IMG/VR virus record: IMGVR_UViG_2541047907_000002
Span: 1-47,077 of that record
Reading direction: 5' to 3' (one strand)
DNA length: 47,077 bases
From: a virus
Taxonomy: Duplodnaviria > Heunggongvirae > Uroviricota > Caudoviricetes
Positions within the stretch are counted from its first letter, which is position 1, and the number at the start of each line of letters is the position of its first letter. Position numbers and translations under genes: made by a program. The notes beneath the pieces were generated by a model. The model ran no database searches, was not told the DNA's origin, and saw nothing but the letters and a program-made list of their open reading frames with translations. Positions 22,655 through 43,189 of the stretch are shown here, piece by piece.

Positions 22655-22922
22655 CCTTCCCGGCTTGCTGAATGTGGCGTTATGCACGGTTATCGTGCTG
22701 ACGCTCTTTTTTTATCGTCGTCGCGATTCCAGACATAAACCACTGATGTCATGGCTGGCCTGGCTGCTGATGCTGCTTTATGCCTTTGCGCCCCTCAGTT
22801 ATCTGTGCGGACACTTCCCGCCGGGTAACTGGCTGGTGGTGTTTTTTAACCTGCTGGTCTGTGTGCTGGTGATACGCGCACGCGGGAACGTTTCAAAAAT
22901 CCTTGTATTACGAAGGCGCTGA
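22644..22922 (+). CDS. Second holin-like small membrane protein
   Basis: 93 aa with three hydrophobic segments and a basic C-terminal tail (RARGNVSKILVLRRR); GGAGGAGGTG upstream; overlaps both neighbours. Confidence 0.4.
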   Translation: MLSNLPGLLNVALCTVIVLTLFFYRRRDSRHKPLMSWLAWLLMLLYAFAPLSYLCGHFPPGNWLVVFFNLLVCVLVIRARGNVSKILVLRRR

Positions 22923-22923
22923 T

Positions 22924-23469
22924 ATGAAGTTGAAAGATGAAATTTTTGACGAAGTTCTGGGAAAAGAGGGCGGCTACGTCAATCATCCGGACGATAAAGG
23001 CGGACCGACAAAATGGGGTATTACGGAAAAAGTCGCCCGCGCTCACGGATATCGCGGCGATATGCGTGACCTGACGCGCGGGCAGGCGCTGGAAATACTC
23101 GAGGCGGATTACTGGTATGGCCCGCGATTTGACCTGGTGGCAAATCTGTCGCCGGATATTGCTGCTGAACTGTGCGACACGGGGGTGAATATGGGGCCGT
23201 CGGTGGCGACGAAGATACTTCAGCGCTGGCTGAATGTGTTCAATCAGGGCGGGAAGCTGTATCCGGATATGGATGCAGATGGACGAATCGGGCCGCGAAC
23301 CATGAATGCACTGCGTGAATACCTGCAGAAACGGGGCAGGGACGGAGAACTGGTGTTACTGAAATCGCTGAACTGCACGCAGGGTGACCGTTATCTGGAA
23401 CTGGCAGAGAAACGCGAGGCCAATGAGTCGTTTGTGTATGGCTGGATGAAAGAGCGTGTTGGTCTGTAA
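22924..23469 (+). CDS. Endolysin, glycoside hydrolase family 108 (N-acetylmuramidase) with C-terminal peptidoglycan-binding domain
   Basis: N-terminal EGGYVNHPDDKGGPTKWGIT is the GH108 signature as recalled; start ATG 22924 preceded by GAAGG. Confidence 0.75.
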   Translation: MKLKDEIFDEVLGKEGGYVNHPDDKGGPTKWGITEKVARAHGYRGDMRDLTRGQALEILEADYWYGPRFDLVANLSPDIAAELCDTGVNMGPSVATKILQRWLNVFNQGGKLYPDMDADGRIGPRTMNALREYLQKRGRDGELVLLKSLNCTQGDRYLELAEKREANESFVYGWMKERVGL

Positions 23470-23728: not shown

Positions 23729-24295
23729 ATGAATATGATGACAGTGCCGTTTCACGGCGATTCTCTTTATGTGGTTAACCATAACGGCGAACCATACGTT
23801 CCCATGAAACCTGTCGTTGAGGGGATGGGGCTGGCATGGCAATCACAGTTGGCTAAGTTAAGACGGCGTTTCGCGTCAACTATAACGGAAATCGTTATGG
23901 TTGCTGAGGATGGGAAACGACGCAATATGGTGTCCCTGCCACTTCGAAAACTTGCAGGCTGGTTACAAACCATCAGTCCAAACAAAGTAAACCCCAAAAT
24001 CCGCGACAAGGTGATTCAGTATCAGGAAGAGTGTGACGATGTTCTCTACGAATACTGGACAAAGGGCGTTGTTGTTAATCCGCGTCGACTGAGCGTGATG
24101 GAAGAACTCAACCAGGCTTGCGCCGACATGAAACGGGATAAAAACATCGCCAGCCTGTTTGGTACCGGCCTGAATGAGTGGAAAACGGTAAAGGCTGCAC
24201 ACGTATCAAAAATTCGTGCGCTGGTGGATGAAGCCAATTTGTTTATTGATTTTGTGCTGGCTGGTACCGGAAAGGGAAAGGTGACGAAAACATGA
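23729..24295 (+). CDS. Antirepressor-like (Ant/P22 AR N-terminal-like) regulatory protein
   Basis: 188 aa; N-terminal region resembles phage antirepressor N-domains (tentative); AAAGG upstream of ATG. Confidence 0.45.
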   Translation: MNMMTVPFHGDSLYVVNHNGEPYVPMKPVVEGMGLAWQSQLAKLRRRFASTITEIVMVAEDGKRRNMVSLPLRKLAGWLQTISPNKVNPKIRDKVIQYQEECDDVLYEYWTKGVVVNPRRLSVMEELNQACADMKRDKNIASLFGTGLNEWKTVKAAHVSKIRALVDEANLFIDFVLAGTGKGKVTKT

Positions 24296-24945: not shown

Positions 24946-25039
24946 CGGGCATTACAGCAGCCCTTTATGGTGAGGGGCTGCGATAATGCAGGTATTAGAG
25001 TGTGCGTAAATGATAATTGCTCCTATTTCCGCGGGTCCT

Positions 25040-25110
25040 TTCCAGAACCTGAAACACCGGGGGTAGGCATACGCGCAAAAACGCGCTATTTATGAAAATT
25101 TTCCGGGATC
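25040..25110. other. Lambda-type cos region (cosN/cosB-proximal sequence)
   Basis: CGCTATTTATGAAAATTTTCCGG (25083-25105) matches the sequence just right of cosN in phage lambda as recalled; lies ~140 bp upstream of a Nu1-like small terminase gene. Confidence 0.4.
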
Positions 25111-25247
25111 CACTTCCGGTTTTTAATTATCTAACCAATTGATTAGATTGTTTTTAGTTATCAAAAAAAACGGAAGTCCGACCAGTTGGTGGGAAGAATG
25201 GCGGTCAAAACGGAGTTGAGTGTAAAGTGAACAGCTAAAGAGGGTGT

Positions 25248-25757
25248 ATGGCAACGCAGGCGGAGGTGGCCGAGCATCTTGGTATAACTGAACGCTGGTT
25301 GCGGGATCTTCAGAAGCACCCGGGAGCGCCAAAAAATCGAAAGCGTGGTGAATACGATATTGATGCCTGGCGATATTTTTATATTTCATACCTTAAACGC
25401 AAAGGAAGAAGCGATACTGATGACGATGGAAATAGCGATTACGAAGAAAAATTACTTATTGCCAGATGGAAATTGACTGAAGAACAGGCAATAGCGCAGC
25501 AACTAAAAAATCAGGTAACCGAAGGCAAGCTCATTGATTCAGGGTTCTGCGTTTTCGCCCTCAGCAAACTGGCGATGGCATTGTCCAGTACGCTTGATTC
25601 CATTCCTTTATCCATGCAGCGACAGTTCCCGGATTTAACCCCGCGCCATATTGATCATCTGAAAACCCTTATCGCAAAGGGAGCGAATCAGTGTGCGCGG
25701 GCAGGGGATAAATTGCCGGAGTTACTCGATGAATATATCCGAACAACAGCTGAATAA
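25248..25757 (+). CDS. Terminase small subunit, lambda Nu1-like
   Basis: N-terminal HTH (QAEVAEHLGITERWLRDL) and C-terminal FCVFALSKLAMALSSTLDSIPLSMQRQFPDL closely parallel lambda Nu1 as recalled. Confidence 0.75.
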   Translation: MATQAEVAEHLGITERWLRDLQKHPGAPKNRKRGEYDIDAWRYFYISYLKRKGRSDTDDDGNSDYEEKLLIARWKLTEEQAIAQQLKNQVTEGKLIDSGFCVFALSKLAMALSSTLDSIPLSMQRQFPDLTPRHIDHLKTLIAKGANQCARAGDKLPELLDEYIRTTAE

Positions 25758-27645
25758 TATGATGGTCGCCGTCGCAACCGCATTACAGCCACTGATAAGG
25801 GCACTGCCGGTGACGCCGGTTGAGTGGGCTGATCAAAATTATTATCTGCCGAAAGAATCGTCATACGGTGAGGGGGAATGGAAAACGCTGCCGTTCCAGG
25901 TCGCCATCATGAACAGCATGGGGAATGATCAGATCCGTACTGTTAATCTGATTAAATCGGCGCGTGTGGGTTACACCAAAATGCTGCTGGGCGTGGTCGG
26001 GTATTTTATTGAGCATAAATCCCGTAACAGCCTGCTCTTCCAGCCGACAGATTCTGCAGCTGAAGATTTCATGAAAGCGCATGTGGAGGCAACGCTACGG
26101 GATGTCCCCTGCCTTAAAGCGTTATCGCCATGGCTGGGAAGAAAGCACCGCGATAATACACTCACCCTGAAGCGTTTTTCCTCCGGCGTGGGGTTCTGGT
26201 GCCTGGGCGGTGCTGCAGCTAAAAACTACCGTGAAAAATCTGTGGATGTGGTCTGCTATGACGAACTCTCCTCGTTTGAACCGGATGTGGAAAAAGAAGG
26301 TTCGCCGACGCTGCTTGGCGATAAACGTATCGAAGGCTCGGTATGGCCTAAATCCATACGCGGCTCAACGCCAAAAATTAAAGGCTCCTGCCAGATTGAG
26401 AAAGCCGCGAATGAATCTGCGCATTTCATGCGGTTTTATGTCCCTTGCCCTCATTGCGGGGAGGCCCAGTATCTGAAGTTTGGCGATGATGCGACGCCGT
26501 TTGGCCTGAAATGGGAGAAGGGTAAACCGGAAACGGTGTATTACCTGTGTGAACATAATGGCTGTGTGATCCGCCAGTCAGAACTTGACCAGAGCGGCGG
26601 ACGCTGGATTTGTGACAATACCGGGATGTGGACGCACGACGGCCTGGCATTTTACAGCGCCGGTGATGAGGAGATGCCGCCACCGCGTTCAATCACGTAC
26701 CACGTGTGGACAGCGTACAGTCCGTTCACCACCTGGGTACAGATTGTTTATGACTGGCTGGATGCGCTGAAGGATCCGAACGGTGTTAAGACGTTTATTA
26801 ACACCACGCTCGGGGAGCCCTATGAAGAGGCTGTGGCAGAAAAACTGAGTTTTGAGTTGTTACTGGAAAAGGTCTGTCACTATGGCGCGCAGGTTCCCCT
26901 GCGGGTGGTTTACCTGACCGCAGGGATCGACTCCCAGAAAGACCGCTATGAAATTTATGTCTGGGGCTGGGCTCCCGGCGAAGAAGCCTTTCTGATTGAC
27001 AAGCAAATTGTCATGGGGCGACCGGAAGATGAGGACACCCTTAAACGTGTTGATGCGGTGATCAGGAAAAAATACCGCCATGCTGACGGTACTGAAATTT
27101 CCATTTCCCGCGTCTGCTGGGATACCGGTGGTATCGACCAGGACATTGTGTATCAGCGTTCCAGAAAACACGGCACTTTTTTTGTACTTCCCATTAAAGG
27201 TGCATCGGTGTACGGCAAGCCGGTGATCACCATGCCCAAAAAGCGCAACCAGCGTGGTGTGTTTCTGTGTGAGGTTGGCTCCGATACCGTCAAGGAAATG
27301 CTGTACGCCCGTTTTGCCCTGCCGGTGGTTTCTGCCAGTGAAGCCGCCCCGTATACCTTCCGTTTTCCGGATAACCCGGACATTTTTTCGGAAGAAGAAG
27401 CACGTCAAATCGTGGCGGAAGAACTGGTGGAAAAGGTGGTTAATGGCAGGGTGAAACTGCTGTGGGATAAAAAAGGGCGACGCAATGAAGCCCTCGACTG
27501 CCTGGTATATGCCTATGCTGCCCTGCGTATTTCAGTACAACGATGGCAACTGGACCTTGAGGCACTGGCCCGGGCACGAAGAGACGAGCAGGATGAGGAT
27601 GATATGAGTCTGGAAGAGATCGCGGCTGCACTGAGTGGAGGATAA
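25729..27645 (+). CDS. Terminase large subunit, lambda gpA-like
   Basis: Extended similarity to lambda A recalled (e.g. KRFSSGVGFWCLGGAAAKNYREKSVDV, CPHCGEAQYLKFGDD); start ATG 25729 overlaps the small subunit gene. Confidence 0.9.
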   Translation: MNISEQQLNNMMVAVATALQPLIRALPVTPVEWADQNYYLPKESSYGEGEWKTLPFQVAIMNSMGNDQIRTVNLIKSARVGYTKMLLGVVGYFIEHKSRNSLLFQPTDSAAEDFMKAHVEATLRDVPCLKALSPWLGRKHRDNTLTLKRFSSGVGFWCLGGAAAKNYREKSVDVVCYDELSSFEPDVEKEGSPTLLGDKRIEGSVWPKSIRGSTPKIKGSCQIEKAANESAHFMRFYVPCPHCGEAQYLKFGDDATPFGLKWEKGKPETVYYLCEHNGCVIRQSELDQSGGRWICDNTGMWTHDGLAFYSAGDEEMPPPRSITYHVWTAYSPFTTWVQIVYDWLDALKDPNGVKTFINTTLGEPYEEAVAEKLSFELLLEKVCHYGAQVPLRVVYLTAGIDSQKDRYEIYVWGWAPGEEAFLIDKQIVMGRPEDEDTLKRVDAVIRKKYRHADGTEISISRVCWDTGGIDQDIVYQRSRKHGTFFVLPIKGASVYGKPVITMPKKRNQRGVFLCEVGSDTVKEMLYARFALPVVSASEAAPYTFRFPDNPDIFSEEEARQIVAEELVEKVVNGRVKLLWDKKGRRNEALDCLVYAYAALRISVQRWQLDLEALARARRDEQDEDDMSLEEIAAALSGG

Positions 27646-27648
27646 GTG

Positions 27649-27858
27649 ATGATTTATACACATGAGATGCTTTGCGAAGCGCGTCGTGCGCTGCATGAGC
27701 TGATGATCGGGCGTGCGGTGGCTTCTGTCAGTAAGAACGGACGACAGGTGCAGTATTCGCGGGCGACGATTAATGAGTTGCGGCGATATATAGAGGAAAT
27801 TGAAAGCGCACTTGGAATATCCGGTCGTCGCCGTGGCCCTGCAGGAGTACGACTGTGA
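27649..27858 (+). CDS. Head-tail joining protein, lambda gpW-like
   Basis: ARRALHELMIGRAV...RRRGPAG parallels lambda W; GGAGGA upstream. Confidence 0.7.
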   Translation: MIYTHEMLCEARRALHELMIGRAVASVSKNGRQVQYSRATINELRRYIEEIESALGISGRRRGPAGVRL

Positions 27859-29426
27859 GCGGGGAACTGGTGGATCTTCATGGACAGCCTCTGCGGCAGA
27901 GTCTGGGATATTCCGGTGGTGGCTCCGGATTCGGAGGGCAACTGGCTGAATGGTTGCCAGCACCGGAAAGCGCCGATGTGGCGCTCTTACCTTCCATTCA
28001 GCTGGGTAACGCCCGTGCGGATGATCTGGTCCGTAACAACGGTATTGCCGCAAATGCTGTGGAAATTCATAAAGACCATATCGTCGGCCACATGTTTCGC
28101 CTGAGCTACCGACCCAACTGGCGCTGGCTGGGGATGTCAGAAGCTGATTCGCATGCCTTTATTGAAGATGTGGAGGCGGCGTGGATGGAATATTGCGATC
28201 CGGTGTTTGGCTCGATGGATGTGGAAGGGCGTCGCTCGTTTACCGAATTTATTCGTGAAGGGGTGGGCGTTCATACGTTTAACGGTGAAATTTTTGTCCA
28301 GCCCGTATGGGATACGGAATCCACGTCATTATTCAGAACAAAATTCAAGACCATCAGTCCGAAGCGCGTCAGTACGCCCGGTTATGGCATCGGCGATCGT
28401 TTTATGCGTGCCGGAGTGGAAATCAACCGTCACGGAAAGGCGATGGCTTATCATGTTCAGGACGATGACTGGCCTGGCTACGGTGTCAGCAACTGGACAC
28501 GGATTGCGGCGACGCTGCCCTCCGGGCGACCGGGAATGATCCATGTGTTTCAGCCGCAGGAGGACGGGCAGACGCGCGGGGCCAACCAGTTTTATTCCGT
28601 GATGGAGCGCCTCAAGATGCTCGACACATTGCAGGCCACGCAACTGCAGTCGGCGGTGGTGCGGGCGATGTATGCCGCGACGATTGAATCCACACTGGAT
28701 TCGGAAAAAGCATTTGAATATATCGCCGGGGTGGGAGATGGCGGTAAAAATCCCCTGAACACCATCATGAAAGGCTATGCGCGCTATTACGCCACCAACA
28801 CGGTCAGGATGGGTGGGGTTCGTATTCCGCATCTTTATCCGGGGGATTCACTGAATCTGCAGACAGCACAGAATGCGGATAATGGTTTCTCTGAACTGGA
28901 AAAGGCGCTGTTACGTTACATTGCTGCCGGGCTGGGCGTGTCCTATGAGCAGCTCTCCCGTGATTATTCACAGGTCAGTTATTCCAGTGCCAGAGCATCC
29001 GCCAATGAGTCGTGGCGGTATTTTATGGGGAAACGAAAATTTGTGGCCAGCCGGCTGGCGTCACAGATGTTTGCCTGCTGGCTGGAGGAAGCCCTTATTC
29101 GCGGAGTGATCCGCCCACCGAAATCCCGTTTTTCATTCTGGGAGGCCCGTTCCGGATGGTGTCGTGCCGAGTGGATTGGTGCCGGTCGCATGGCGATTGA
29201 TGGCCTTAAGGAAGTGCAGGAAGCGGTGATGCGTATTGAAGGTGGTTTAAGCACGTACGAGAAAGAGCTGGCTCTGATGGGCGATGACTATCAGGAGATT
29301 TTCCGCCAGCAACTGCGTGAAAGCCAGGAGCGACAGGCGGCTGGTCTTCCCCGCCCCATCTGGATAAAGGATACGTTTCAGCAGCAGATCCGACAGACAA
29401 CGGGAGGAAAAGGCGATGCGTCGTAA
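27855..29426 (+). CDS. Portal protein, lambda gpB family
   Basis: 523 aa; GTGA overlap with the W-like gene; position and recalled similarity to lambda B. Confidence 0.9.
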   Translation: MSGELVDLHGQPLRQSLGYSGGGSGFGGQLAEWLPAPESADVALLPSIQLGNARADDLVRNNGIAANAVEIHKDHIVGHMFRLSYRPNWRWLGMSEADSHAFIEDVEAAWMEYCDPVFGSMDVEGRRSFTEFIREGVGVHTFNGEIFVQPVWDTESTSLFRTKFKTISPKRVSTPGYGIGDRFMRAGVEINRHGKAMAYHVQDDDWPGYGVSNWTRIAATLPSGRPGMIHVFQPQEDGQTRGANQFYSVMERLKMLDTLQATQLQSAVVRAMYAATIESTLDSEKAFEYIAGVGDGGKNPLNTIMKGYARYYATNTVRMGGVRIPHLYPGDSLNLQTAQNADNGFSELEKALLRYIAAGLGVSYEQLSRDYSQVSYSSARASANESWRYFMGKRKFVASRLASQMFACWLEEALIRGVIRPPKSRFSFWEARSGWCRAEWIGAGRMAIDGLKEVQEAVMRIEGGLSTYEKELALMGDDYQEIFRQQLRESQERQAAGLPRPIWIKDTFQQQIRQTTGGKGDAS

Positions 29427-31032
29427 TTTATCGCATATTGCCGCCATGGCATTTAATGAGCCGCTTTTACTGGAGCCCGCCTATGCGCGGGTTTTCTTTT
29501 GCGCGCTGGGTAAAGAGATAGGGGCCGGCAGCCTTGCCGTTCCTCAGCAGGCTGTTCAGCTTGATGCTGATGGTATGCAACTGGCTGTGACTGACTATAT
29601 GGCGGGCGGTCAGCGTCCGGCAAAGAGTTACCAGGTGAAGAATGGCATCGCCATTCTGCCGGTGAGCGGCACGCTGGTGCATAAACTGGGTACCCTGCGG
29701 CCTTACTCCGTCATGACCGGCTATGACGGCCTGACGGCCCGCCTTCAGATGGCGGTGAATGATCCGGATGTGCGCGGCATTTTGCTGGATATCGACAGCC
29801 CGGGCGGTCAGGCTGCCGGGGCGTTTGACTGTGCTGACATGATTTACCGCCTGCGGGAACAGAAGCCCGTTTGGGCGCTGTGCAATGACATGGCCTGTTC
29901 AGCCGCCATGTTGCTGGCGGCAGCCTGTACGCGTCGGCTGGTCACGCAGACAGCAAAAATTGGTTCGATTGGTGTGATGATGGCGCACACCAGTTACGAG
30001 AAACAACTGGCACAAGAAGGGGTGGACATCACGCTGATTTACTCCGGGCGGCACAAGGTTGACGGCAACAGTATTCAGGCATTGCCGGCAGGTGTGCGTG
30101 CGGATTTCCAGCGCCGTATTGATGAGGCCCGCCGGATGTTTGTCGACAAGGTGGCACGTTATACGGGGCTGAGCGCTGAGGCGGTGATGAATACCGAAGC
30201 AGCCGTTTATGACGGTCAGGCAGGCATTGATGCTGGCCTGGCTGATCAACTGATTAATGCTGCAGATGCCGTTGAAGTGATGGTTTCTGCACTGAATGAA
30301 TCTGTTACACAGGAGGAAACGATGACAGTTAAAAATCTGACCGTTGCTGAAGCGGTGGTCCAGGAAAATCAGCGCGTGATGGGGATCCTGAATTGTCAGG
30401 AGGCGAAAGGACGCGAACAACTGGCGAAGATGCTGGCAGGCCAGCTAGGAATGACGGTTGAGCAGGCGAAAACGTTGCTTGCAGCAGCGCCGGTTGCCGG
30501 TACTGACAGCACGGGTGATCAGATTATGGCGCTGCCGGAAGCAAAGGGGCGTGAGCAACTGGCACAGATGCTGGCAGGTCAACCGGGGATGACGGTGGAG
30601 CAGGCGAAAGCGTTTCTGGCAGCAGCTCCTGCTGCCGGTGCTGCAGGCACAGGCGATCAGATTATGGCGCTGCCGGAAGCTAAAGGGCGTGAACAACTCG
30701 CACAGGCGCTGGCTGAACAGCCGGGAATGACCGTTGATCAGGCAAAAACGTTACTGGCGGCGGTACCGGTTGCTGGTTCTGCAAGTGTCGGCGAGCAGAT
30801 TATGACACTGCCCGAGGCGAAAGGGCGCGAGCAACTTGCACAGGTGCTGGCAGAACAACCGGGAATGACGGTGGCGCAGGCGAAAACGTTGCTGGCAGCC
30901 GCACCGGCGGCATCACAGCCGTCACAGGAAACACTTTTTGATCGCTTTATGGCACAGCATGCCGCCAGTGCGGTTTCCGGAGGCGGAACTGCCGGGCACG
31001 GAGAAGAAGATCTGCTGATGAGTATGCCGTAA
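29416..31032 (+). CDS. Prohead protease / scaffold protein, lambda gpC-like (S49 peptidase family) with repeated C-terminal domain
   Basis: N-terminal ClpP/SppA-like region; C-terminus has four tandem ~46 aa repeats (LPEAKGREQLAQ.LA.QPGMTV.QAK.LLAA.P). Confidence 0.85.
   Translation: MRRNLSHIAAMAFNEPLLLEPAYARVFFCALGKEIGAGSLAVPQQAVQLDADGMQLAVTDYMAGGQRPAKSYQVKNGIAILPVSGTLVHKLGTLRPYSVMTGYDGLTARLQMAVNDPDVRGILLDIDSPGGQAAGAFDCADMIYRLREQKPVWALCNDMACSAAMLLAAACTRRLVTQTAKIGSIGVMMAHTSYEKQLAQEGVDITLIYSGRHKVDGNSIQALPAGVRADFQRRIDEARRMFVDKVARYTGLSAEAVMNTEAAVYDGQAGIDAGLADQLINAADAVEVMVSALNESVTQEETMTVKNLTVAEAVVQENQRVMGILNCQEAKGREQLAKMLAGQLGMTVEQAKTLLAAAPVAGTDSTGDQIMALPEAKGREQLAQMLAGQPGMTVEQAKAFLAAAPAAGAAGTGDQIMALPEAKGREQLAQALAEQPGMTVDQAKTLLAAVPVAGSASVGEQIMTLPEAKGREQLAQVLAEQPGMTVAQAKTLLAAAPAASQPSQETLFDRFMAQHAASAVSGGGTAGHGEEDLLMSMP
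30400..30935 (+). repeat. Four in-frame tandem repeats of ~138 bp inside the gpC-like gene
   Basis: Repeat units begin with GA(G/A)GC(G/A/T)AAAGG(A/G)CG(C/T)GA(A/G)CAACT and each ends with CAGATTATG(G/A)C(G/A)CTGCC(G/C). Confidence 0.6.
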
Positions 31033-31071
31033 GCGGTATCCGTGATTCAGATAAATCAGGAGACTGAAAAA

Positions 31072-31407
31072 ATGATTAAAACCACCACAGAAAAGCGCGC
31101 GGATGTGCACATTTTTGCCGGAAGCGAGCCGGCGCATACCGCAACCGCCACCAGTGGTATCAGTGCCGCCACACCTGCACTGACGCCACTGATGCTGGAT
31201 GATGCCACCGGCAAACTGGTGGTCTGGGATGGTCAGAAAGCCGGAACGGCTGTGGGTGTGCTGGCTCTGGCGCTTGCCGGGTCCGAGTCCACACTGACGT
31301 ATTACAAAAGCGGTACGTTTGCCACTGAATCGCTGGTCTGGCCTGATTCGGTGGATGCGGTGAAAAAAGCCAACGCATTTGTGGGAAGTGCCATCAGTCA
31401 CGCCTGA
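31072..31407 (+). CDS. Head decoration protein, lambda gpD-like
   Basis: PAHTATA...ATPALTPLMLD...KLVVWDG...YYKSGTF parallels lambda D; AGGAGA upstream. Confidence 0.8.
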   Translation: MIKTTTEKRADVHIFAGSEPAHTATATSGISAATPALTPLMLDDATGKLVVWDGQKAGTAVGVLALALAGSESTLTYYKSGTFATESLVWPDSVDAVKKANAFVGSAISHA

Positions 31408-31476
31408 TGGTGAAGTGATTAACTGAACAAACGGGGCGCGATGCGTCCCGTTTGTGTTTCTGAAGGATAATATATA

Positions 31477-32505
31477 ATGGGGTTATTTACCACGCGTCAG
31501 TTGCTCGGCTACACCGAGCAGAAAGTGAAATTTCGTGCGCTGTTTCTGGAGCTTTTTTTTCGCCGCACGATCACTTTCCATACTCAGGAAGTGATGCTGG
31601 ATAAAATTACCGGCAAAACGCCGGTTGCGGCATATGTCTCTCCGGTGGTGTCAGGCAAAGTGCTGCGCAGCCGTGGCGGTGAAACCCGCGTGTTACGTCC
31701 CGGTTATGTAAAACCAAAACACCGCCTGGATTATCAGCAGGCGGTGGAACGTCTGCCGGGGGAAGATCCGGCCCGTCTTAATGACCCGGCCTACCGTCGC
31801 CTGCGTATTCTGACTGACAACCTGAAGCAGGAAGAGCAGGCGATTGTGCAGGTGGAAGAAATGCAGGCGGTCAGTGCCATTCTGCAGGGTAAGTACACCA
31901 TGAGCGGTGAGCAGTTTGAGACGGTGGAAGTGGATTTCGGACGTTCTGCTGCCAATAACATTACACAGGCTGGCGGTAATCAGTGGTCACAGCAGAACGC
32001 TGACACCTTTGATCCAACGCACGATCTGGATGCGTACTGCGATTTTGCCTCCGGGACCATCAATATCGCGATTATGGACGGCACGGTCTGGCGTTTGCTG
32101 AATGGTTTTAAACTGTTCCGTGAAAAACTGGATATCCGCCGTGGTTCAAAATCGGAACTGGAAACCGCGCTGAAAGACCTGGGCTCCGTGGTCTCTTTTA
32201 AGGGGTATTACGGCGATCTGGCTATTGTGGTGGCGAAAACAGCTTATGTCGATGAAAACGGGGATGAACAGCGTTATCTGCCGGAAGGTACACTGATTCT
32301 GGGGAATACTCAGGCGGAAGGCGTCCGTTGCTATGGGGCCATTCAGGATAACCAGGCGCTGAGTGAAGGGATCACCGCTGCAGTTCGTTATCCAAAACAC
32401 TGGCTGGAGGTGGGTGATCCTGGTTGCGAATATACCATGACGCAGTCTGCGCCGTTGATGGTGTTGCCGGATCCGGATGTGTTTGTGGTGGTTCAGGTGA
32501 AATAA
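31477..32505 (+). CDS. Major capsid protein, lambda gpE-like
   Basis: 342 aa; extensive similarity to lambda E recalled (YVSPVVSGKVLRSRGG, GYVKPKH, QVEEMQAVSAILQGKYTM). Confidence 0.9.
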   Translation: MGLFTTRQLLGYTEQKVKFRALFLELFFRRTITFHTQEVMLDKITGKTPVAAYVSPVVSGKVLRSRGGETRVLRPGYVKPKHRLDYQQAVERLPGEDPARLNDPAYRRLRILTDNLKQEEQAIVQVEEMQAVSAILQGKYTMSGEQFETVEVDFGRSAANNITQAGGNQWSQQNADTFDPTHDLDAYCDFASGTINIAIMDGTVWRLLNGFKLFREKLDIRRGSKSELETALKDLGSVVSFKGYYGDLAIVVAKTAYVDENGDEQRYLPEGTLILGNTQAEGVRCYGAIQDNQALSEGITAAVRYPKHWLEVGDPGCEYTMTQSAPLMVLPDPDVFVVVQVK

Positions 32506-32555
32506 GGTCAGGCGGGATATTCCCGCCTTTTTCTTTAGCGCACGGGAGAGATGTG

Positions 32556-32921
32556 ATGACAAAAGAGCAGATGACCGAACGTTTGCAGGAACTGGCAGTG
32601 ATCCTGGGGCGTGAAGCAGATATTTCAGGTTCAAAGGCCGATCTTGAGCAGCGTCTGGCGGAATGGGAAGAGGAGGCCGCTGGCTTCGATGGGGAGGAGA
32701 CAGGGGCGGAAGAGGTGGACAACGACGTATCCGGTGACGGGATGCATTCTGAGCGGGAACTCGTTCGGGTGCGCATGCTGAAAACGGCACATATGCCTGC
32801 CTGTGATGCCGTGACGGGGAAAATGCTGATGTTCGCCCGGGCCTCCAGTGTTGTGCTGGTTAATGAAGCTGCAGTTCCTGCATTGCTGGCGGACGGTCTG
32901 GCAGAAAAAATTCGGGAGTAA
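32556..32921 (+). CDS. DNA packaging protein, lambda FI-like
   Basis: Position after the capsid gene; GGGAGAG upstream of ATG 32556; C-terminal region loosely parallels lambda FI. Confidence 0.55.
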   Translation: MTKEQMTERLQELAVILGREADISGSKADLEQRLAEWEEEAAGFDGEETGAEEVDNDVSGDGMHSERELVRVRMLKTAHMPACDAVTGKMLMFARASSVVLVNEAAVPALLADGLAEKIRE

Positions 32922-33325
32922 TGATGTTTGATAATCTGTTCGATCAGGCCATGAGTGATGCGGATGACATTATCCTTGACATGATGGGGACGGAAATCAG
33001 CATATTTCCGGGCGGTACCGAAAGAAAAATCCGTGCCGTTTTTGATGTGCCGGCAGATAACACCGGGATGAACACAGGCAGCGGCGAAATCCGTGATACT
33101 GCGCCGGTGTTATTTACCCGGAGCGCATGGGTTGCCGGACTGAAAAAATATGACAGGGTCATAATCCACGGCGAACCCTACCAGGTGGTCGATCCCGGCT
33201 GGGATGAGTCGGGTACTGCGGGTCAGGGTGTGATTACCATTACCCTCGCGCGGGGAGAACCTGGAAGAAGTACGCCTGCCGCCCCTGTACGACCGAGTAA
33301 ACGTTATGGCAGTCAGAGAGCATGA
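32921..33325 (+). CDS. Head-tail connector, lambda FII-like
   Basis: N-terminus MMFDNLFDQAMSDADDII parallels lambda FII (MADFDNLFDAAIARADE); TAATG overlap with the FI-like gene. Confidence 0.65.
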   Translation: MMFDNLFDQAMSDADDIILDMMGTEISIFPGGTERKIRAVFDVPADNTGMNTGSGEIRDTAPVLFTRSAWVAGLKKYDRVIIHGEPYQVVDPGWDESGTAGQGVITITLARGEPGRSTPAAPVRPSKRYGSQRA

Positions 33326-34028
33326 ACGAAGCAGTGCCCGGCAGCGACGACTGGCACGAAACCTCGTCGTTGATATTGACGAGGATGAGGTGCTGAGCAT
33401 TATCGCTAAACTGGGTGGTTCAAAAAGCCAGATCCGTAAAGCCTGGGGGGTGGCGCTGAAAAGAGCCGCGTCCGCACTGCGGATGAAGGCCATGGCAGAG
33501 TTTAAAAAACAGGTTGCCCCACGCAGTCAGAAAATGATCGGAAGGCGTGTGCTGCGTGATATTGTCATTCGTCGAAACGGTGATGAGTTTGATGAGGCGA
33601 AGGTGTGGTTCGGCCTTAACGCCATCAAAGTACGTGACCTGCGCGGACGTATCAGTGGAGGGCGACGCGGTGAACGCCATCAGTTGCGCGATGAACTGGG
33701 ACGTTTTGCACCGGCCACACGCCGAAGACAGGCGAGGGAGATTCGTTTTAAACCTGCCGGGGAGGCAATACCGGTCACTACCTGGTCAGGTGAAGAGGCT
33801 TTCATTAATGAATTTGAGTCTGAAAACCGGCGCGGACGCATTTCACGACGTAAGACGGTACTGGTCCGGCAGGCATCCGGACGACGAAGGGTGCGCGAAG
33901 CAGAAATTGATATTTATGAAGCCATGCTGAACCGTATAGAGGATTTTGTTTTCCCTGATGCGGAAGCACTGATCCTGAAAAATTTTGAGCATGAACTGAA
34001 ATTCCGGGTATTTAAGGGGATGGAATGA
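33306..34028 (+). CDS. Hypothetical virion protein at the head-tail junction (possible tail completion protein)
   Basis: 240 aa, very Arg-rich; position equivalent to P2 R/S; function inferred from position only. Confidence 0.35.
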   Translation: MAVREHERSSARQRRLARNLVVDIDEDEVLSIIAKLGGSKSQIRKAWGVALKRAASALRMKAMAEFKKQVAPRSQKMIGRRVLRDIVIRRNGDEFDEAKVWFGLNAIKVRDLRGRISGGRRGERHQLRDELGRFAPATRRRQAREIRFKPAGEAIPVTTWSGEEAFINEFESENRRGRISRRKTVLVRQASGRRRVREAEIDIYEAMLNRIEDFVFPDAEALILKNFEHELKFRVFKGME

Positions 34029-34591
34029 CAGAGCCATTGATGATGGGAACCTGGCATCAGGCGGTGATTGACAGTCTGAAACAAATTCCCTGGGTGGAAG
34101 ATGCCGATGAGTACCCGGAAAAAGTGACGCAACTGGTGACGCCTGCCGTGTTTGTGGATGTGCCCGGCTGGGACAAGGCTCAGTTTGCCGACGGGCAGAC
34201 ACGGGTCACGCTGAAATGCGATCTGTTTGTGGTGACAGACCGGGCCGGGAAGACGGAAAACGTGCCAAAACCGCAGATATTTGCCCGCTGTCTGGCAATG
34301 GATTTATCTGACTGGATTGATGGAGCCACGTTCGGGCTGGATAACGTTGATCCGGCTGTTTTTATCGATGCTGAGGTGGATACCTTCGACCGGCTGCTGG
34401 ACGACTACATCGTTTTCCGCGTTTCTTTTGAACAGGATATTCCTGTCGGGGCGGATCCGTTCGCGGTTCCGGGAGGGGCACCGTTACAGGAAGTCTGGCT
34501 GGGGAAAGTACCGGAAACCGGTAAAAAGCATGTGCAGGATTATCGTCTTATCTGGAAAGCGGAGGTTACCGGCGATGAGTCTGGCGGATGA
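34025..34591 (+). CDS. Hypothetical virion protein (possible tail completion protein)
   Basis: 188 aa; ATGA-type overlap with upstream gene; position only. Confidence 0.35.
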   Translation: MTEPLMMGTWHQAVIDSLKQIPWVEDADEYPEKVTQLVTPAVFVDVPGWDKAQFADGQTRVTLKCDLFVVTDRAGKTENVPKPQIFARCLAMDLSDWIDGATFGLDNVDPAVFIDAEVDTFDRLLDDYIVFRVSFEQDIPVGADPFAVPGGAPLQEVWLGKVPETGKKHVQDYRLIWKAEVTGDESGG

Positions 34592-35198
34592 GGTGGCGGA
34601 GCTGCGCCGCCGGGTGGCGGATATGGTCCGGCGCGGTGTGGTGGTGGAGGTGATCCCGGGGAGCCCGGTGATGGTCCGGGTGGATATCGGGGATGCGCTT
34701 TCGCCCCCGTTGCCCTGGATTCAGGTGCAGTCCGGGCGTTACATGCAGGTCAGTAATTACCCGGCTCCCGGAGATGCGGTCACGGTGATATCAGAGGCCG
34801 GGGATTTACGTAACGGTCGGGTGTATCCGGGGGCGAATATTGACGCCATTCCGGTACCGGCGGGCAGCGAATATGAGCATGTCGTTTTGTTTGATACCGG
34901 AACGGAGATCCGTTACGACCGCAAGGATAATGCCCTGTCCATCACGCTGGCTGAAGGCGGCAGCTATAAAATTACTGGCAGGGGAACGCTGGACGGTCCG
35001 GTGGAAATCACCGACACCCTGACCATACAGGGTAAAGCAACCATGAATGCTGAGGCGGTGGTTAAGGCGGATCTGATGGTTGGCGGTGAGGTTTCTGATT
35101 ATCACGGAACGATGAGTCAAATCAGAATTGTCTATAACGGTCACAATCACCGGGGCGACAGTGGTGGCAGCACCGGACAGCCTGGTCAGCAAATGTAA
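34575..35198 (+). CDS. Baseplate assembly protein V (spike), P2 gpV-like
   Basis: C-terminal HNHRGDSGGSTGQP parallels P2 V (HKHPGDSGGTTGSP); GGAGGT upstream; the ORF track N-terminal extension to 34281 is rejected. Confidence 0.75.
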   Translation: MSLADEVAELRRRVADMVRRGVVVEVIPGSPVMVRVDIGDALSPPLPWIQVQSGRYMQVSNYPAPGDAVTVISEAGDLRNGRVYPGANIDAIPVPAGSEYEHVVLFDTGTEIRYDRKDNALSITLAEGGSYKITGRGTLDGPVEITDTLTIQGKATMNAEAVVKADLMVGGEVSDYHGTMSQIRIVYNGHNHRGDSGGSTGQPGQQM

Positions 35199-35231
35199 TC
35201 TCCTTTCAGTTCTTTTTCCGGAATAAACAAC

Positions 35232-35588
35232 ATGATTGGTATTGATTCCGCCACCGGCAGATATCTGCACGGTAACGAACATCTGCGTCAGTCCGTCACC
35301 GATATTCTGTCAACACCGGTCGGCAGCCGTGTTCTTCTCAGGGAATACGGCAGCAGGTTATTCAGTCTGCTTGATAACCCGCAGGATGATTTCACACGGG
35401 TGAGGATTGTCCGTGAAACGGCAACTGCCCTCGAACGCTGGGAACCCCGCCTGACCCTCCGGCGGGTGGAGGTGACATGGACAGGAGAAGGAAGCGCCTG
35501 GCTGACGCTTGTCGGGGTGAACAACGAGACACAGGAAACGATTCGACTTGAGGAGATAAAAATTGGCAACGTCTCAGGCAATCATTGA
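35232..35588 (+). CDS. Baseplate protein W, P2 gpW-like
   Basis: SVTDILSTPVGSRVLLREYGS parallels P2 W (SIGDILRTPVGSRVMRRDYGS). Confidence 0.75.
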   Translation: MIGIDSATGRYLHGNEHLRQSVTDILSTPVGSRVLLREYGSRLFSLLDNPQDDFTRVRIVRETATALERWEPRLTLRRVEVTWTGEGSAWLTLVGVNNETQETIRLEEIKIGNVSGNH

Positions 35589-36477
35589 TCTGTCCGCGAT
35601 ACCAGTACCGGATGCGGTAGAGGTGCCGGACACCGCTGTGCTGGTCACTCAGATAGTGGCGAAATATCAGGAACTGGACACGTTGTTTTCGGCCCTGGTG
35701 GAATCCGATCCGGCGTATAAATGGGCAGAGGCACTGGCTTTTCGGGTGGCGCTGATGCGCCAGCAGGTCAATGATGCTGTCCGGGGGGTACTGCTTGCGA
35801 GCGCCCGGAAGAACGACCTGGATCAGATTGGTGCGAATTTTCAGGTGCAACGTCTGGTGATTACCCCGGCAGACGACAGCACTATTCCGCCCATGCCTGC
35901 GGTATATGAAGATGATGATGCTTTTCGCGAACGTATCCAGTTGTCATGGGCACGACTCAGTACCGCGGGCGCGAAAAACGCCTACCACTATTTTGCACAG
36001 AGTGCTGATCCTGATGTGCTGGATGTGAAAGCCTACGGGCCGGAAACGCATTCACAGGAAGGGCGTGTTTTTCTTTATGTGTTATCGCGAACCGGAAACG
36101 GTACGGCATCACAACCCCTGCTGGATAAGGTGGCAGCGTCAGTCAATGATGATGAAATCCGGCCTCTGACGGATTTTGTCAGCGTCCGTGCGGCAGACAT
36201 TATTCCCTACGATGTGGTGGCAGATATTCAAATTCCCTACGGGCTGGATGGTGAACTGGTGATGAATAATGCCCGCCAGGCGCTGCAGACATATACCGAC
36301 AGTGTTCACCGGATTGGTTCTGTGGCGTCCTGCTCCGGCATGGACGGAGCCCTGCATCAGACGGGTGTGATTACAGTGGTGCTGAAATCACCGGCCAGCG
36401 ATATTGTTCCGGTAATGGGACAGGCACCATGGTGTCGCTCAGTCACGCTGAACAAGTTGGAGACAACTGATGAATGA
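35563..36477 (+). CDS. Baseplate protein J, P2 gpJ-like
   Basis: LDQIGANFQVQRLVITPADDSTIPPMPAV parallels P2 J; probable TTG start at 35563 preceded by GAGGAG. Confidence 0.8.
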   Translation: MATSQAIIDLSAIPVPDAVEVPDTAVLVTQIVAKYQELDTLFSALVESDPAYKWAEALAFRVALMRQQVNDAVRGVLLASARKNDLDQIGANFQVQRLVITPADDSTIPPMPAVYEDDDAFRERIQLSWARLSTAGAKNAYHYFAQSADPDVLDVKAYGPETHSQEGRVFLYVLSRTGNGTASQPLLDKVAASVNDDEIRPLTDFVSVRAADIIPYDVVADIQIPYGLDGELVMNNARQALQTYTDSVHRIGSVASCSGMDGALHQTGVITVVLKSPASDIVPVMGQAPWCRSVTLNKLETTDE

Positions 36478-39400
36478 CAAAATCAGAAGCATACTTCCGG
36501 TCAGCGCCAGCCTGGCAGAGCGGGTAGTGGACAGTACTGCCGGTGATATGCTGGCGGAAATTGCGGTCTGTCTGATCCGCTATGTAAAAAATCCCGACTT
36601 ATGTCCGGCGGAATTGCTGCCATGGCTGGCCTGGGAAATGGCAGTGGATACCTGGAGTGAGCACTGGACTGAGGCGGAAAAACGGGCGGCGATTAAACGT
36701 GCTGCTTACATCCACCGTCACAGGGGGACAAAAGCGGCGCTGATGGCGTCGCTGGCTGACAGTCCCTTCCGGTCGCAGATTGTTCAGTGGTATGAGCTGA
36801 ACCCACCCGGAGAACCGTATACCTTTCGTCTGAACGTGGAGCAGAAGGATTTACCGGTGCTGATGAATGATCATCAGGATCTGAAGCATGCGGTGCTCCG
36901 AGCCAAAAATCTGCGCAGCTGGTTCAGTGTTCATATTTACGGACGCCATAGCGGTGAGGTGTATGGCGCGGGATATATTTCGTCCACCGAAATACTAAAG
37001 AATCGCCTTAATGCCCGCAGTATCCTTCCGGCAGAAAGCGACGTGATGCTTCTTCCCGGGGAGCAAAAAGTGATCCCGGTAACCATTTTGCCGGCAGGGG
37101 CAGATGACAAAAGCTTTACGGCCACAGTAACCAGTGACACAGTGGTCACAGCCACGGTACGGGATGGCGCACTGCATCTTCACGGGCTGCGCCGGGGACA
37201 GAGTAGCGTGGTGCTGACCACTGTGAATGGCGTGGCGGCAACGGTGACCGTTCGCGTGGTGGCGGAGGCTCGGTTCATGGTTCGTGTCGATGACGCGAGT
37301 AAGCCGCTGTTTTTTGCTCATGCAGACGGATTCACCATTGATTATGGCGATGGTGTCGATTCCTGCGACTATACCCTTCAGGATGAGGGAGTATATACCA
37401 CCCGAGAGATTGTTGCAGGCACTGTGATGAGCCTGACTGTGAAGGGATGTGACAGTCTGTGTTTTTACCGTTCCGGCAGAGCAAGAAGTGCCCCTTTACA
37501 GGAACTGATCAGGATAAGCAGTGATCGCAGCAGTATGTATCAATTTGCCTGGGGGCAGGCAGACCTGAATAAAATTCATCCCGGCGCACTGGGTGATTTG
37601 CCGAATGTCACAACATATGCCTATGCCTTCAGCAATTGTTCGTCCCTGTCTGCGCTGCCAGATGCCCTGTTTTCCGGTTCACCGGCGGTGACTTCATTTG
37701 CGCATGTGTTTTATGGTTGCACTTCACTGGCAACACTACCGGGCGATCTGTTCAGTGACAATCCGCAGGTCACCACGTTTGTCAGTGCCTTTCAGGGCTG
37801 TACCGCGCTCGGGGAAATTCCGGCAGGGCTGTTTGACAGCGCAGGCCTGGTTACCACGTTCGCCTCCCTGTTTTACGGTTGCACGGGCCTGACCCGTCTG
37901 CCGGGAGGCCTGTTCCGGGCGGCGGTCTCTGCCACGGATTTTGCCAGCCTGTGTTACAGCTGCACGGCGCTGACGGCGTTACCTGCCGGACTGTTCACGG
38001 GAGCGGTGAGTGCGAAAAGTTTCAGTATGGCCTTTGCATACTGTCGCCAGCTGGCAACGCTGCCGGATGACCTGTTCAGCGGGCTCGGGCAGGTGACGGG
38101 ATTTTATCAGACCTTTCAGTACTGTCAGGCACTGACCACGCTGCCGTCACGACTGTTTTATGACTGCGTGTCGGTGATCTCGTTTGGTGGTACTTTTCGT
38201 AACTGTACCAAACTTACCACCCTGCCGGAGGATGTGTTTGTCATCCGTGACGGCACATCACAGATAACTCTGGCTGAGGTGTTCAGTTACTGCACGGCGC
38301 TGACTGCGGTACCGACGGGACTGTTTGAGCCGGTGAAGGCGCGAATCAGCAATGCCGGTTACGCCTTCATGTATGCGGGCCTCACCCGTGTACCGGCCCG
38401 TCTGTTCGCGGGTGCGGTGAACTGCACCACGTTCAGTCAGGTTTTTGCCAACTGTTCAGCCCTGGAGGAAACCGGCGATGAGGTATTTGTCGGGTGTGAT
38501 GCTGCTGTGAGTGCGGCGCAGGCGTTTTACAGATGCAGAACGCTGAGCACGGTCGGGGCTGGGCTGTTTACGGACTGTGGACGTATAACAAATTTTCTGG
38601 GGGCATTCAGTCTCTGTTATGCGCTGTCGTCCATACCGGAAAATCTGTTTGAGGGATGCAGCGCGGCCACGAATTTTTATGAGACGTTTTACAGTTGTCA
38701 GGCGCTGGTCGCCCTGCCGGATTCCCTGTTTGCTGCCTGTGAAGGTACCGATAACATCAGCCTGTATGGCACATTTGCATACTGCGCAGCACTGGTGTCG
38801 ATTCCTGACGGATTATTCAGTGCCATCAGGAGCCGTATCAGCACGGCTCAGGTGGCATTTCGAGGCTGTTCATCACTTACCACAGTCCCTTCCGGTCTGT
38901 TCGCGGATGCCACAAACTGCGGGAATATCGACTCTGCTTTTCTGGACTGTACGGCACTGAGCACTGTGGGCGATGAGGTGTTCAGCGGATGTACTGCCCT
39001 GACGTCTGCCCATAACGTTTTTTCGGGGTGCCTGACCCTGACAACCACGGGTGACCGTCTTCTGGCCGGCTGTACGGCACTGAAATATGTGAGCGGGGTG
39101 TTTGAGGGATGCAGTGCCCTGACCTCCACGGGAGGGGCGCTTCTGTCCGGTTGTACGTCACTGACATCCGCGACGGGCCTGTTCAGCGCGTGCAGGCGTC
39201 TGGTCACGGTCCCGGAAGACACGTTCCGGGACTGCGGGGCGCTGATAAGCGCCGGGGAAACCTTTGCCGGGTGCACATCCCTGACCGGAATACCGGATGC
39301 GTTGTTTGCGGACTGTCCTTCACTGAAATCGGCGGAAAAGATGTTTTATGGCTGCAGCGCACTGGTCAGCGTGCCACCGGATATTGTGAAGCCAGGCGAC

Positions 39401-39619
39401 ACAGCCGGGTCAGTGAACTGGATGTTCCGTGAATGTTCATCGCTGGCGGTGGATATCAACACTCTCTTCACGCAGACCTTTCCTGAAGGTTACTCGCTGG
39501 CGTATCTCTTCGACGGGTGCAGTAACGTGACGGGCAGCAAAAGTGAATTTCTGGCGAAGTTTCCGTCACCGGTGACTTCAGCATATTGTTTTGATGACTG
39601 TCCGTTACTGACGGACTGA
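36470..39619 (+). CDS. Tail protein I (P2 gpI-like N-domain) fused to an Ig-like domain and a long array of ~23-residue leucine-rich-repeat-like units
   Basis: 1049 aa; N-terminal ~180 aa resemble phage tail protein I; a Big_2-like segment follows; the remaining ~680 aa are roughly 25-30 repeats of pattern F-x2-C-x2-L-x2-(L/I)P-x2-LF. Confidence 0.7.
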   Translation: MNDKIRSILPVSASLAERVVDSTAGDMLAEIAVCLIRYVKNPDLCPAELLPWLAWEMAVDTWSEHWTEAEKRAAIKRAAYIHRHRGTKAALMASLADSPFRSQIVQWYELNPPGEPYTFRLNVEQKDLPVLMNDHQDLKHAVLRAKNLRSWFSVHIYGRHSGEVYGAGYISSTEILKNRLNARSILPAESDVMLLPGEQKVIPVTILPAGADDKSFTATVTSDTVVTATVRDGALHLHGLRRGQSSVVLTTVNGVAATVTVRVVAEARFMVRVDDASKPLFFAHADGFTIDYGDGVDSCDYTLQDEGVYTTREIVAGTVMSLTVKGCDSLCFYRSGRARSAPLQELIRISSDRSSMYQFAWGQADLNKIHPGALGDLPNVTTYAYAFSNCSSLSALPDALFSGSPAVTSFAHVFYGCTSLATLPGDLFSDNPQVTTFVSAFQGCTALGEIPAGLFDSAGLVTTFASLFYGCTGLTRLPGGLFRAAVSATDFASLCYSCTALTALPAGLFTGAVSAKSFSMAFAYCRQLATLPDDLFSGLGQVTGFYQTFQYCQALTTLPSRLFYDCVSVISFGGTFRNCTKLTTLPEDVFVIRDGTSQITLAEVFSYCTALTAVPTGLFEPVKARISNAGYAFMYAGLTRVPARLFAGAVNCTTFSQVFANCSALEETGDEVFVGCDAAVSAAQAFYRCRTLSTVGAGLFTDCGRITNFLGAFSLCYALSSIPENLFEGCSAATNFYETFYSCQALVALPDSLFAACEGTDNISLYGTFAYCAALVSIPDGLFSAIRSRISTAQVAFRGCSSLTTVPSGLFADATNCGNIDSAFLDCTALSTVGDEVFSGCTALTSAHNVFSGCLTLTTTGDRLLAGCTALKYVSGVFEGCSALTSTGGALLSGCTSLTSATGLFSACRRLVTVPEDTFRDCGALISAGETFAGCTSLTGIPDALFADCPSLKSAEKMFYGCSALVSVPPDIVKPGDTAGSVNWMFRECSSLAVDINTLFTQTFPEGYSLAYLFDGCSNVTGSKSEFLAKFPSPVTSAYCFDDCPLLTD

Positions 39620-39635
39620 ATGACAGGAGAAAACG

Positions 39636-40583
39636 ATGCCAGCAGGATTAACCCTGACCGTAGCCGGTGCGGCAGAAATAGAGGCGGCTTATCAGGCCGG
39701 TGATGTGGTCACCATTGAGGCGGTGGCTGTCGGTGACGGGGGAAACCGGCTCCTGCCATCCACACCGGATGAACTGGCTGCCATGACGTCACTGGCAGGG
39801 GAGTTCGGTCGCGAACCTTTCGCCTCCGGTACCACAGATGACGGTTTTATCAGCGGGCAGGTGGTGATTGACTGCAAAACCTATCCGGGGAAAACGCTCC
39901 GTGAGCTGGGTCTGGTCAGCCAGTCGGGCACCCTGATTGCTTATGGCCTTTATCCGGACACGTACCTTCCTGACCAGACCGACTCGGTCATCAAGGAGGT
40001 CATTGTGACGTCGGTACTGGAACTGACGCACGCAGAGAGTGTGACGCTGTTACTTGACCCGGAAAGGATGCTGCTGACGCAGGATGCCGGCGACAGGCGT
40101 TATCTGCGCATCAGTGAAGACCTGGCGGAAATTGCAGAAAAAGGTGCAGAAGCACAGGCCCGGGGGCGGATGCATCTTGATGTTTACAGTACCACGGAAG
40201 CAGATAATCAGTTCCAGCCGACGGGCAATTACGCCATGGCGGATGAGGTGTACACGAAAACGGAATCCGACAACCGTTTCCAGCCCAAAGGGGAATATTA
40301 CTCAAAGACCGAGTCCGATAACCGTTTTCAGGCAAAAGGTGAGTACTACACAAAAACTGAATCTGATGCGCGTTATATACAGAACTGGGAGTACACCGCA
40401 GAGGTGGTTTACAAACCTGCAAATAACGAAACGAGCTGGACATTCCGGGCTCCTGCCGGATGTACGATTTCAGGGATTATTGTGGAGGAAACAGGCAGCA
40501 ATTCTGCCGATAACATCAGCGGTGTTTACTACAAGGCTGCGCAGATTTATATCAATGGTGCATGGCGCTCTGTATCGGGTTAA
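39636..40583 (+). CDS. Tail fiber protein, P2 gpH-like N-terminus with fiber repeats
   Basis: N-terminal tail-collar fiber-like region; three copies of YTKTESDNRFQ.KGEYY-type repeats. Confidence 0.65.
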   Translation: MPAGLTLTVAGAAEIEAAYQAGDVVTIEAVAVGDGGNRLLPSTPDELAAMTSLAGEFGREPFASGTTDDGFISGQVVIDCKTYPGKTLRELGLVSQSGTLIAYGLYPDTYLPDQTDSVIKEVIVTSVLELTHAESVTLLLDPERMLLTQDAGDRRYLRISEDLAEIAEKGAEAQARGRMHLDVYSTTEADNQFQPTGNYAMADEVYTKTESDNRFQPKGEYYSKTESDNRFQAKGEYYTKTESDARYIQNWEYTAEVVYKPANNETSWTFRAPAGCTISGIIVEETGSNSADNISGVYYKAAQIYINGAWRSVSG

Positions 40584-40598
40584 TAAAAGGAGCCAGTA

Positions 40599-41126: not shown

Positions 41127-41143
41127 AAAAAAGTGAATCAACA

Positions 41144-41168
41144 GACCGCCTTTAAGGGCGGTTTTTTT
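41144..41168 (+). terminator. Intrinsic terminator after the fiber genes
   Basis: Stem GACCGCC/GGCGGT(C) with loop TTTAAG followed by T7. Confidence 0.5.
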
Positions 41169-41181
41169 ATGGGAGAAATGT

Positions 41182-43169: not shown

Positions 43170-43189
43170 TTTCCGTATCCTGTCATTCA

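Follow-up and report, generated by a model that had tools for sequence, protein, structure and literature searches.

The cos site of phage lambda is composed of cosQ, cosN, I2 and cosB, the last with the order R3-I1-R2-R1, and is cut by the gpNu1/gpA terminase. The N-terminal domain of lambda-type small terminase subunits (TerS) binds DNA, and cosQ is the packaging-termination signal, in lambda reportedly GGGTCCT at 48473-48479 (Wieczorek and Feiss). Natural cosN variants were reportedly surveyed by Vahanian et al. in 2017 (Virology 509:140). The cosQ site is highly conserved and 7 bp long (PMC4669245). In lambda, I2 occupies ~33 bp (bp 18-50) and separates cosN from cosB; it contains a static bend, is strongly conserved in lambda-like phages and is essential, its replacement cutting virus yield by ~10^-5 (PMC4856287). 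Lambda terminase reportedly measures off its nick positions from the R site, and mutations that alter the spacing move the nicks (cited in PMC4856287). Within cosN, left-half positions 3 and 4 are reported as conserved (PMC4669245; PMC9303873), and a CG dinucleotide next to each nick is reported to be highly conserved across lambda-like phages (Feiss et al., PMC4669245; PMC9303873). Variants described by the Feiss laboratory change at bp 7-12 only and keep GGGC and both flanking CGs (PMC4669245; PMC9303873; PMC12315714).

The window analysed here is a stretch of 47,077 nucleotides of a virus of the Caudoviricetes (IMG/VR record IMGVR_UViG_2541047907_000002). Positions 25033-25218 are very probably the cohesive-end (cos) packaging site of a temperate prophage whose head and packaging genes are of lambda type. 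A preliminary description had proposed a lambda-like cos upstream of the terminase genes, and this proposal was borne out, as cosQ, a cosN equivalent, I2 and an R3-IHF-R2(-R1) cosB are found in lambda order and at lambda spacing. The site contains the following features:

25033-25039, + strand: cosQ heptamer GGGTCCT, identical to lambda 48473-48479, in a conserved block reaching 25043 (GGGTCCTTTCC)
25060-25075, + strand: cosN equivalent, the 12 bp aligned to the lambda cohesive end with 2 bp of flank at either side; the right-flank CG is conserved in 67 of 67 window-type sites
25062-25073, + strand: predicted 12-nt 5' cohesive end GGTAGGCATACG, from spacing, dyad symmetry and intermediate natural alleles
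25064-25070, + strand: hypervariable 7-bp cosN core TAGGCAT, defined by allele diversity among relatives
25079-25111, + strand: I2 segment, equivalent to lambda bp 18-50, whose core is the 23-mer at 25084-25106 (23/23 lambda identity)
25112-25124, + strand: R3-like putative TerS-binding site ACTTCCGGTTTTT, an inverted-repeat arm at positions equivalent to lambda bp 50-65
25132-25144, - strand: I1-like IHF site AATCAATTGGTTA (consensus WATCARNNNNTTR), inside the palindrome 25129-25148
25165-25177, - strand: R2-like putative TerS-binding site, read as AAAAAACGGAAGT on the + strand, inverted relative to R3
25207-25218, - strand: tentative R1-like site AAAACGGAGTTG, in R2 orientation, conserved in two of three relatives

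The 23-mer CGCTATTTATGAAAATTTTCCGG, with which the preliminary description began, occurs once in the window, on the + strand at 25084-25106, so that the coordinates first given for it (25083-25105) were off by one. Its assignment to the segment just right of cosN in lambda was correct: on alignment with the lambda left end it is identical at all 23 positions to bp 23-45 of NC_001416 (BLAST query 75-97 against record 23-45, 100%). None of 100 dinucleotide-preserving shuffles matched the 23-mer, even with 2 mismatches allowed. By this alignment the 23-mer is the core of I2 (lambda bp 18-50) and not cosN, and its annotation label is corrected to I2. A second lambda match, absent from the preliminary description, is GGGTCCTTTCC at 25033-25043, which equals lambda 48473-48483 and includes the cosQ heptamer. 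The heptamer is present in all relatives gathered by anchors placed elsewhere. The window shares with lambda 11 bp at cosQ and 23 bp at the I2 core, with the subsites in the same order.

The putative cosB is of the complex lambda type, which has three R sites (here R1 is tentative) and an IHF site placed between R3 and R2, the latter inverted. R3 (25112-25124) and R2 (25165-25177) form a 13-nt inverted repeat with 92% complementarity, and the IHF consensus has only two matches in the 47 kb on both strands, one of them in the 40 bp that separate R3 from R2. All three elements (R3, the IHF palindrome and R2) are conserved in three relatives with the same cosB; the window R2 has A for C at 25170, whereas the three relatives hold the perfect R3 complement AAACCGGAAGT. 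The tentative R1 is based on a direct repeat, as AAAACGGA occurs at 25167 and again 40 bp on, at 25207; the weaker third R copy at 25207 reads AAAACGGAGTT. It is oriented like R2, whereas lambda R1 is oriented like R3, and the R-site sequence also differs (ACTTCCGGTTT in the window versus CGTTTCC in lambda).

Four genes follow the site directly:

25248-25757, + strand: Nu1-like TerS (Pfam Phage_Nu1 PF07471 at residues 71-150, 1.1e-19; phrog_57 over the full length)
25729-27645, + strand: large terminase subunit (TerL), a gpA homologue (Pfam GpA_ATPase PF05876, 2.3e-53; GpA_nuclease PF20454, 1.6e-67)
27646-27858, + strand: gpW-like head-tail joining protein (Pfam gpW)
27855-29426, + strand: lambda-family portal (Pfam Phage_portal_2)

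The terminase is of the gpA/Nu1 type in its domains, and its TerS gene lies directly downstream of cos. TerL aligns with lambda gpA along its whole length at 64% identity, and gpW and then portal come next, as in lambda. TerS aligns with lambda Nu1 only in its C-terminal 108 aa (42%). Its N-terminal domain gave no alignment to lambda Nu1, which fits the private R-site sequence. A gpA-family TerL together with cosQ, I2 and cosB predicts, by homology, packaging of the cos type and not of the headful (pac) type.

The closest phage records by DNA are of the phage 21/PhiR12 type, with 75 to 76% identity in the head and packaging region. PhiR12_1 shares the TerS N-terminal type of the window and its layout of R3, inverted R2 and inverted R1, but records of this type carry lambda's own 12-mer, GGGCGGCGACCT, and their gpA is ~80% identical to that of the window. 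The only records of the phage collection with the cosN type of the window are the SerU-LTIIb prophage and vB_EcoM-705R4. These share cosQ, the flanks and the cosN frame and have other cores (TCTGGGG and TCGGTAG), whereas their cosB and TerS differ; in vB_EcoM-705R4 the I2 differs as well and cosB is short. In the latter record (locus L204, 2500-2620; core TCGGTAG), only ~60 bp precede the TerS start, and its cosB may be a simple one of the N15 kind.

The preliminary description had noted that the string upstream of the 23-mer is unlike lambda cosN, and the comparison agrees (GGGGGTAGGCATACGCGCAAAAACGCG at 25059-85 versus lambda GGGCGGCGACCTCGCGGGTTTT). Its suggestion of a different cohesive end is very probably right, as the segment aligned to the lambda 12-mer shares 6 of its 12 bases. 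Left-half positions 3 and 4 are among those changed. As in the natural variants of N15, phiD326, Gifsy-1, mEp213/LLS and HK225 (Feiss laboratory), the cohesive end differs while cosQ and I2 are kept.

Cos sites of relatives were sampled with several anchors (the 23-mer, the right flank, both flanks, or cosQ alone) and from matches in Escherichia coli genomes and phage records. Sites with the spacer type of the window (n = 67) contained 20 different 12-mers, varying mainly at overhang positions 3 to 9, compared with 10 different 12-mers in the remaining 125 sites; lambda's 12-mer made up 103 of 177 sites in an earlier tally. In the sample anchored on cosQ alone, 25049-25063 and 25071-25103 were nearly invariant, and diversity at 25064-25070 was 0.31 to 0.74. 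Among distinct alleles, positions 1, 2 and 12 are fixed, 10 and 11 rarely vary, and 3 to 9 vary freely. In the TerL clade of the window, conservation is limited to bases close to each predicted nick: GG (positions 1-2), ACG (positions 10-12) and, immediately beyond the overhang, CGC. Variants of the Feiss-laboratory type, GGGCGGCGTCCG and GGGCGGAAGGCG, were also recovered among the collected sites.

In this sample the cosN type follows the TerL clade without exception. All 20 loci with a gpA at least 93.6% identical to that of the window have the window-type cosN, and all loci with gpA 79 to 89% identical (PhiR12-like) or 62 to 66% identical (lambda group) have lambda-type 12-mers. Where the Feiss-laboratory variants change at bp 7-12, the window clade varies at 3-9 and keeps 10-12, with 20 alleles inside the clade defined by at least 93.6% TerL identity. 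The clade departs from the literature pattern, in which cosN variation is confined to bp 7-12 and GGGC and the flanking CGs are kept. As a cos the site is unremarkable; what deserves further study is the sticky-end variability specific to this clade.

A window-type cos was found in 81 of 5,426 complete E. coli genomes, at 102 places. The core allele TAGGCAT turned up at no other site, so none of the 81 matches the window exactly over 25033-25106. Identical core alleles occur next to differing upstream sequences and next to at least four cosB/TerS types. Furthermore, a mosaic joint lies right after I2, at about 25103-25108, where one shared cosQ-cosN-I2 block meets, in different relatives, at least four unrelated types of cosB and TerS N terminus. 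In 24 of 26 distinct sites, positions 4 and 9 of the overhang hold complementary bases (C-G in 17, A-T in 7). This covariation is suggestive in that it fits a two-fold symmetric enzyme, and it could be a single historical event. No TerL residue was found that separates alleles with a GTA half-site from those with a GTC half-site. A scan of genome_contigs gave one hit, in a Planctomycetia MAG, which was without cos context and was rejected as a chance match.

By analogy with lambda, a TerS dimer would bind R3 and the oppositely oriented R2, with the DNA between them bent by IHF at 25132-25144, and the bound TerS would anchor the gpA-type TerL, which would then make two nicks ~12 bp apart in cosN. 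The top strand would be nicked between 25061 and 25062 and the bottom strand between 25073 and 25074, leaving the 5' overhang GGTAGGCATACG. The sequence identities, the order and spacing of the subsites, the gene families and the population pattern are observed, whereas protein binding, nick positions, overhang length and function are inferred. An overhang at 25062-25073, GGTAGGCATACG, is probable. The register 25060-25071, giving GGGGTAGGCATA, is quite unlikely, and a different stagger or overhang length, or the lack of any ordered cut, is somewhat unlikely.

Several features point to 25062-25073. When the lambda I2 spacing is kept, lambda bp 1-12 fall on 25062-25073, with 6 of 12 bases matching and CGC next, as in lambda. 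The predicted bottom-strand nick is 10 bp from the 23-mer, again as in lambda, and the centre of R3 is 44.5 bp from the predicted nick versus 45 bp in lambda, which fits the reported spacing of lambda nicks relative to the R site. Partial two-fold symmetry is present, and the best dyad centre across alleles is between 25067 and 25068, with a mean of 4.35 of 8 symmetric pairs (5 of 8 at the true centre in lambda). In addition, natural intermediate alleles with the same flanks have GGGCGGCAGACG between CG and CG and are identical to lambda through GGGCGGC in the 25062-25073 frame, and relative L164 (gpA 88.9% identical to that of the window) has lambda's own 12-mer at the 22-bp cosQ spacing, with AG as the left flank. 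Against this register, the left flank is GG and not CG as in lambda, and cosQ is 1 bp closer, with 22 bp to the predicted top-strand nick versus 23 bp in lambda and a cosQ-I2 distance 1 bp below that of lambda. None of the phage records with determined ends carries the window cosN type. The S contig of Phi06_2987 ends 7 nt inside an HK225-type cohesive end; it was rejected as evidence of a physical end, as its cosN is of lambda type and the end lies off the nick. L164 itself (IMGVR_UViG_2924371731_000005) is a natural hybrid cos that combines a window-like left flank and spacing with the 12-mer GGGCGGCGACCT.

A functional lambda-type cos could also be nicked by a CG-N12-CG rule (overhang 25060-25071, GGGGTAGGCATA) or with a stagger other than 12 nt (25060-25073 would give 14 nt, and a top-strand nick set by the distance to cosQ would give 11 nt), which is a tentative possibility. 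The register 25060-25071 starts with GGGG in place of GGTA and has CG on both sides in every allele, in keeping with the flanking-CG conservation of lambda-like phages (PMC4669245; PMC9303873). Position 25060 varies (G, A or C) like the first overhang base between lambda's two half-sites, and locus L206 tolerates a 1-bp slip in the G run. However, this register puts the bottom nick 2 bp farther away from both I2 and R3, at odds with lambda, where the nicks track the distance to cosB; its dyad is weaker (mean of 2.76 symmetric pairs versus 4.35), and in it the GGGCGGCAGACG alleles no longer line up base by base with lambda GGGCGGC. A decayed, non-functional cos of a cryptic prophage would account for the substitution of A for C at 25170 in R2 relative to the three relatives, and the exact core allele TAGGCAT is seen nowhere else. 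Nevertheless, rare or singleton core alleles are normal in the window clade, all cos subsites are present at lambda spacing, and intact open reading frames encode TerS, TerL, gpW, the portal, the protease, the capsid protein and those tail proteins whose genes were checked, which makes decay improbable; the R2 substitution and the tentative R1 mean that the packaging efficiency of the window copy may differ, and the prophage may carry defects elsewhere, for example in its left half. The conserved block could instead be mainly a transcription signal, with a hairpin and T-run at 25103-25129 (CCGGGATCCACTTCCGG then TTTTTAATTA) as an intrinsic terminator between the lysis and head genes. The number of terminator-like matches is, however, that expected by chance (1 observed versus 0.7), the stem is made of the I2 end and R3 and is missing in relatives with other cosB types, and cosQ, I2 and the IHF site would be left unexplained. 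The Rfam search of the site found no RNA family and the scan for promoter-like sites found none there. The hairpin at 25103-25119, at chance level and not conserved, was rejected as a functional terminator, and a transcriptional role as the main one is scarcely credible.

Under the favored reading of 25033-25218 as a functional cos, the simplest reading of the allele pattern is that the overhang interior is unconstrained in this TerL clade. TerL, positioned by cosB, I2 and cosQ, would contact only the bases beside each scissile bond. Any interior sequence would still anneal because both chromosome ends derive from the same cos sequence, and with the 7 interior bp free to vary, related phages would carry many different sticky ends. 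An unlikely alternative is that core diversity reflects diversifying or balancing selection on sticky ends (e.g., through cohesive-end incompatibility of coresident phages) and not just relaxed constraint. In the window TerL clade the 7-bp core has 0.467 differences per site versus 0.128 at four-fold degenerate sites of the adjacent gpA, compared with 0.061 versus 0.368 in other lambda-like TerL clades, and pairs with gpA four-fold divergence of <0.05 still differ at 25 to 29% of core sites. Selection is also in line with the recurrence of identical core alleles next to different flanks and cosB types, and with locus L007, which differs from the window at 5 of 159 positions, 3 of them in the 7-bp core (hypergeometric ~5e-4, hand calculation). 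On the other hand, these phages are mosaics, for which reason the non-cos DNA just upstream is equally diverse (~0.7) and the neutral baseline is uncertain; recent spread of the module may have homogenized the synonymous sites of gpA, and the fitness mechanism is hypothetical. Two cos sites that share a contig or genome have differing alleles, yet random pairs differ in ~90% of cases anyway. The excess over synonymous divergence could stem from selection, from mutation particular to the ends or from recombination that has reshuffled old alleles. It is rather doubtful that the TerL of this one clade no longer reads the cosN interior and that the sticky ends are, in addition, actively diversified. 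The cause would then be nonannealing "cohesive-end incompatibility groups" among coresident lambdoid prophages and satellites, or a mutation process specific to exposed single-stranded ends, and close relatives would be expected to carry dozens of different end sequences.

For annotation, the site supplies a predicted packaging strategy (cos, 5' overhang), predicted genome ends and the predicted correct linear start of the prophage. The window clade is also a natural mutagenesis experiment, with a nearly constant TerL and at least 20 cosN interiors, and the varying interiors include left-half positions reported as conserved and important for lambda nicking. The bases read by the window TerL are predicted to be 1-2 and 10-12 plus the flanks. 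Matched sets of alleles could be used to probe cosN recognition and to probe mismatched sticky ends as a barrier between phages sharing a cell.

Upstream of the site, a box, AATGATAAT, at 25009-25017 lies ~16 bp before cosQ and is partly conserved in relatives; its lambda counterpart is GATGATAAT at about 48449. A GC-rich inverted repeat, GCAGCCCTT...GAGGGGCTGC, at 24946-24990 lies just past an open reading frame ending at 24945, and 24950-24997 is 91.7% identical to phage phiP27, which otherwise lacks this cos. Short open reading frames overlap the site at 24967-25095 (+ strand) and 25123-25389 (- strand).

Three metagenome contigs (L157, L158 and L160) have two convergent window-type cos cores ~730 bp apart with different 7-bp cores. 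In L157 (4321-5084), capsid-like genes lie upstream, and a 146-aa open reading frame at 4429-4869, whose product looks DNA binding by eye, starts ~80 bp past the first cos core. The layout of L157 looks like that of a phage satellite with a second, inverted cos.

The prophage is a mosaic in which a lambda-type head and packaging module (25248-33000; Nu1, A, W, portal, S49 protease and capsid protein E) is joined to a P2-type contractile tail module (34000-47077; baseplate J, tail protein I, sheath, tube and gpD). The matching prophage of E. coli A19 has the same head and tail annotation. Accessory genes are often inserted between the lysis genes and cos. In the window, the lysis genes include a GH108 endolysin (22903-23469), and a gene with P22 antirepressor N-terminal and ORF11CD3 domains (23729-24295) lies between them and cos. 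In the tail module, 36470-39619 encodes a 1,049-aa protein with the P2 gpI tail domain in its first 150 residues, followed by an extension of ~900 residues with weak matches to Big_2 and BspA-type leucine-rich repeats; it is far longer than the Pfam tail-protein I domain (139 positions) found at its start.
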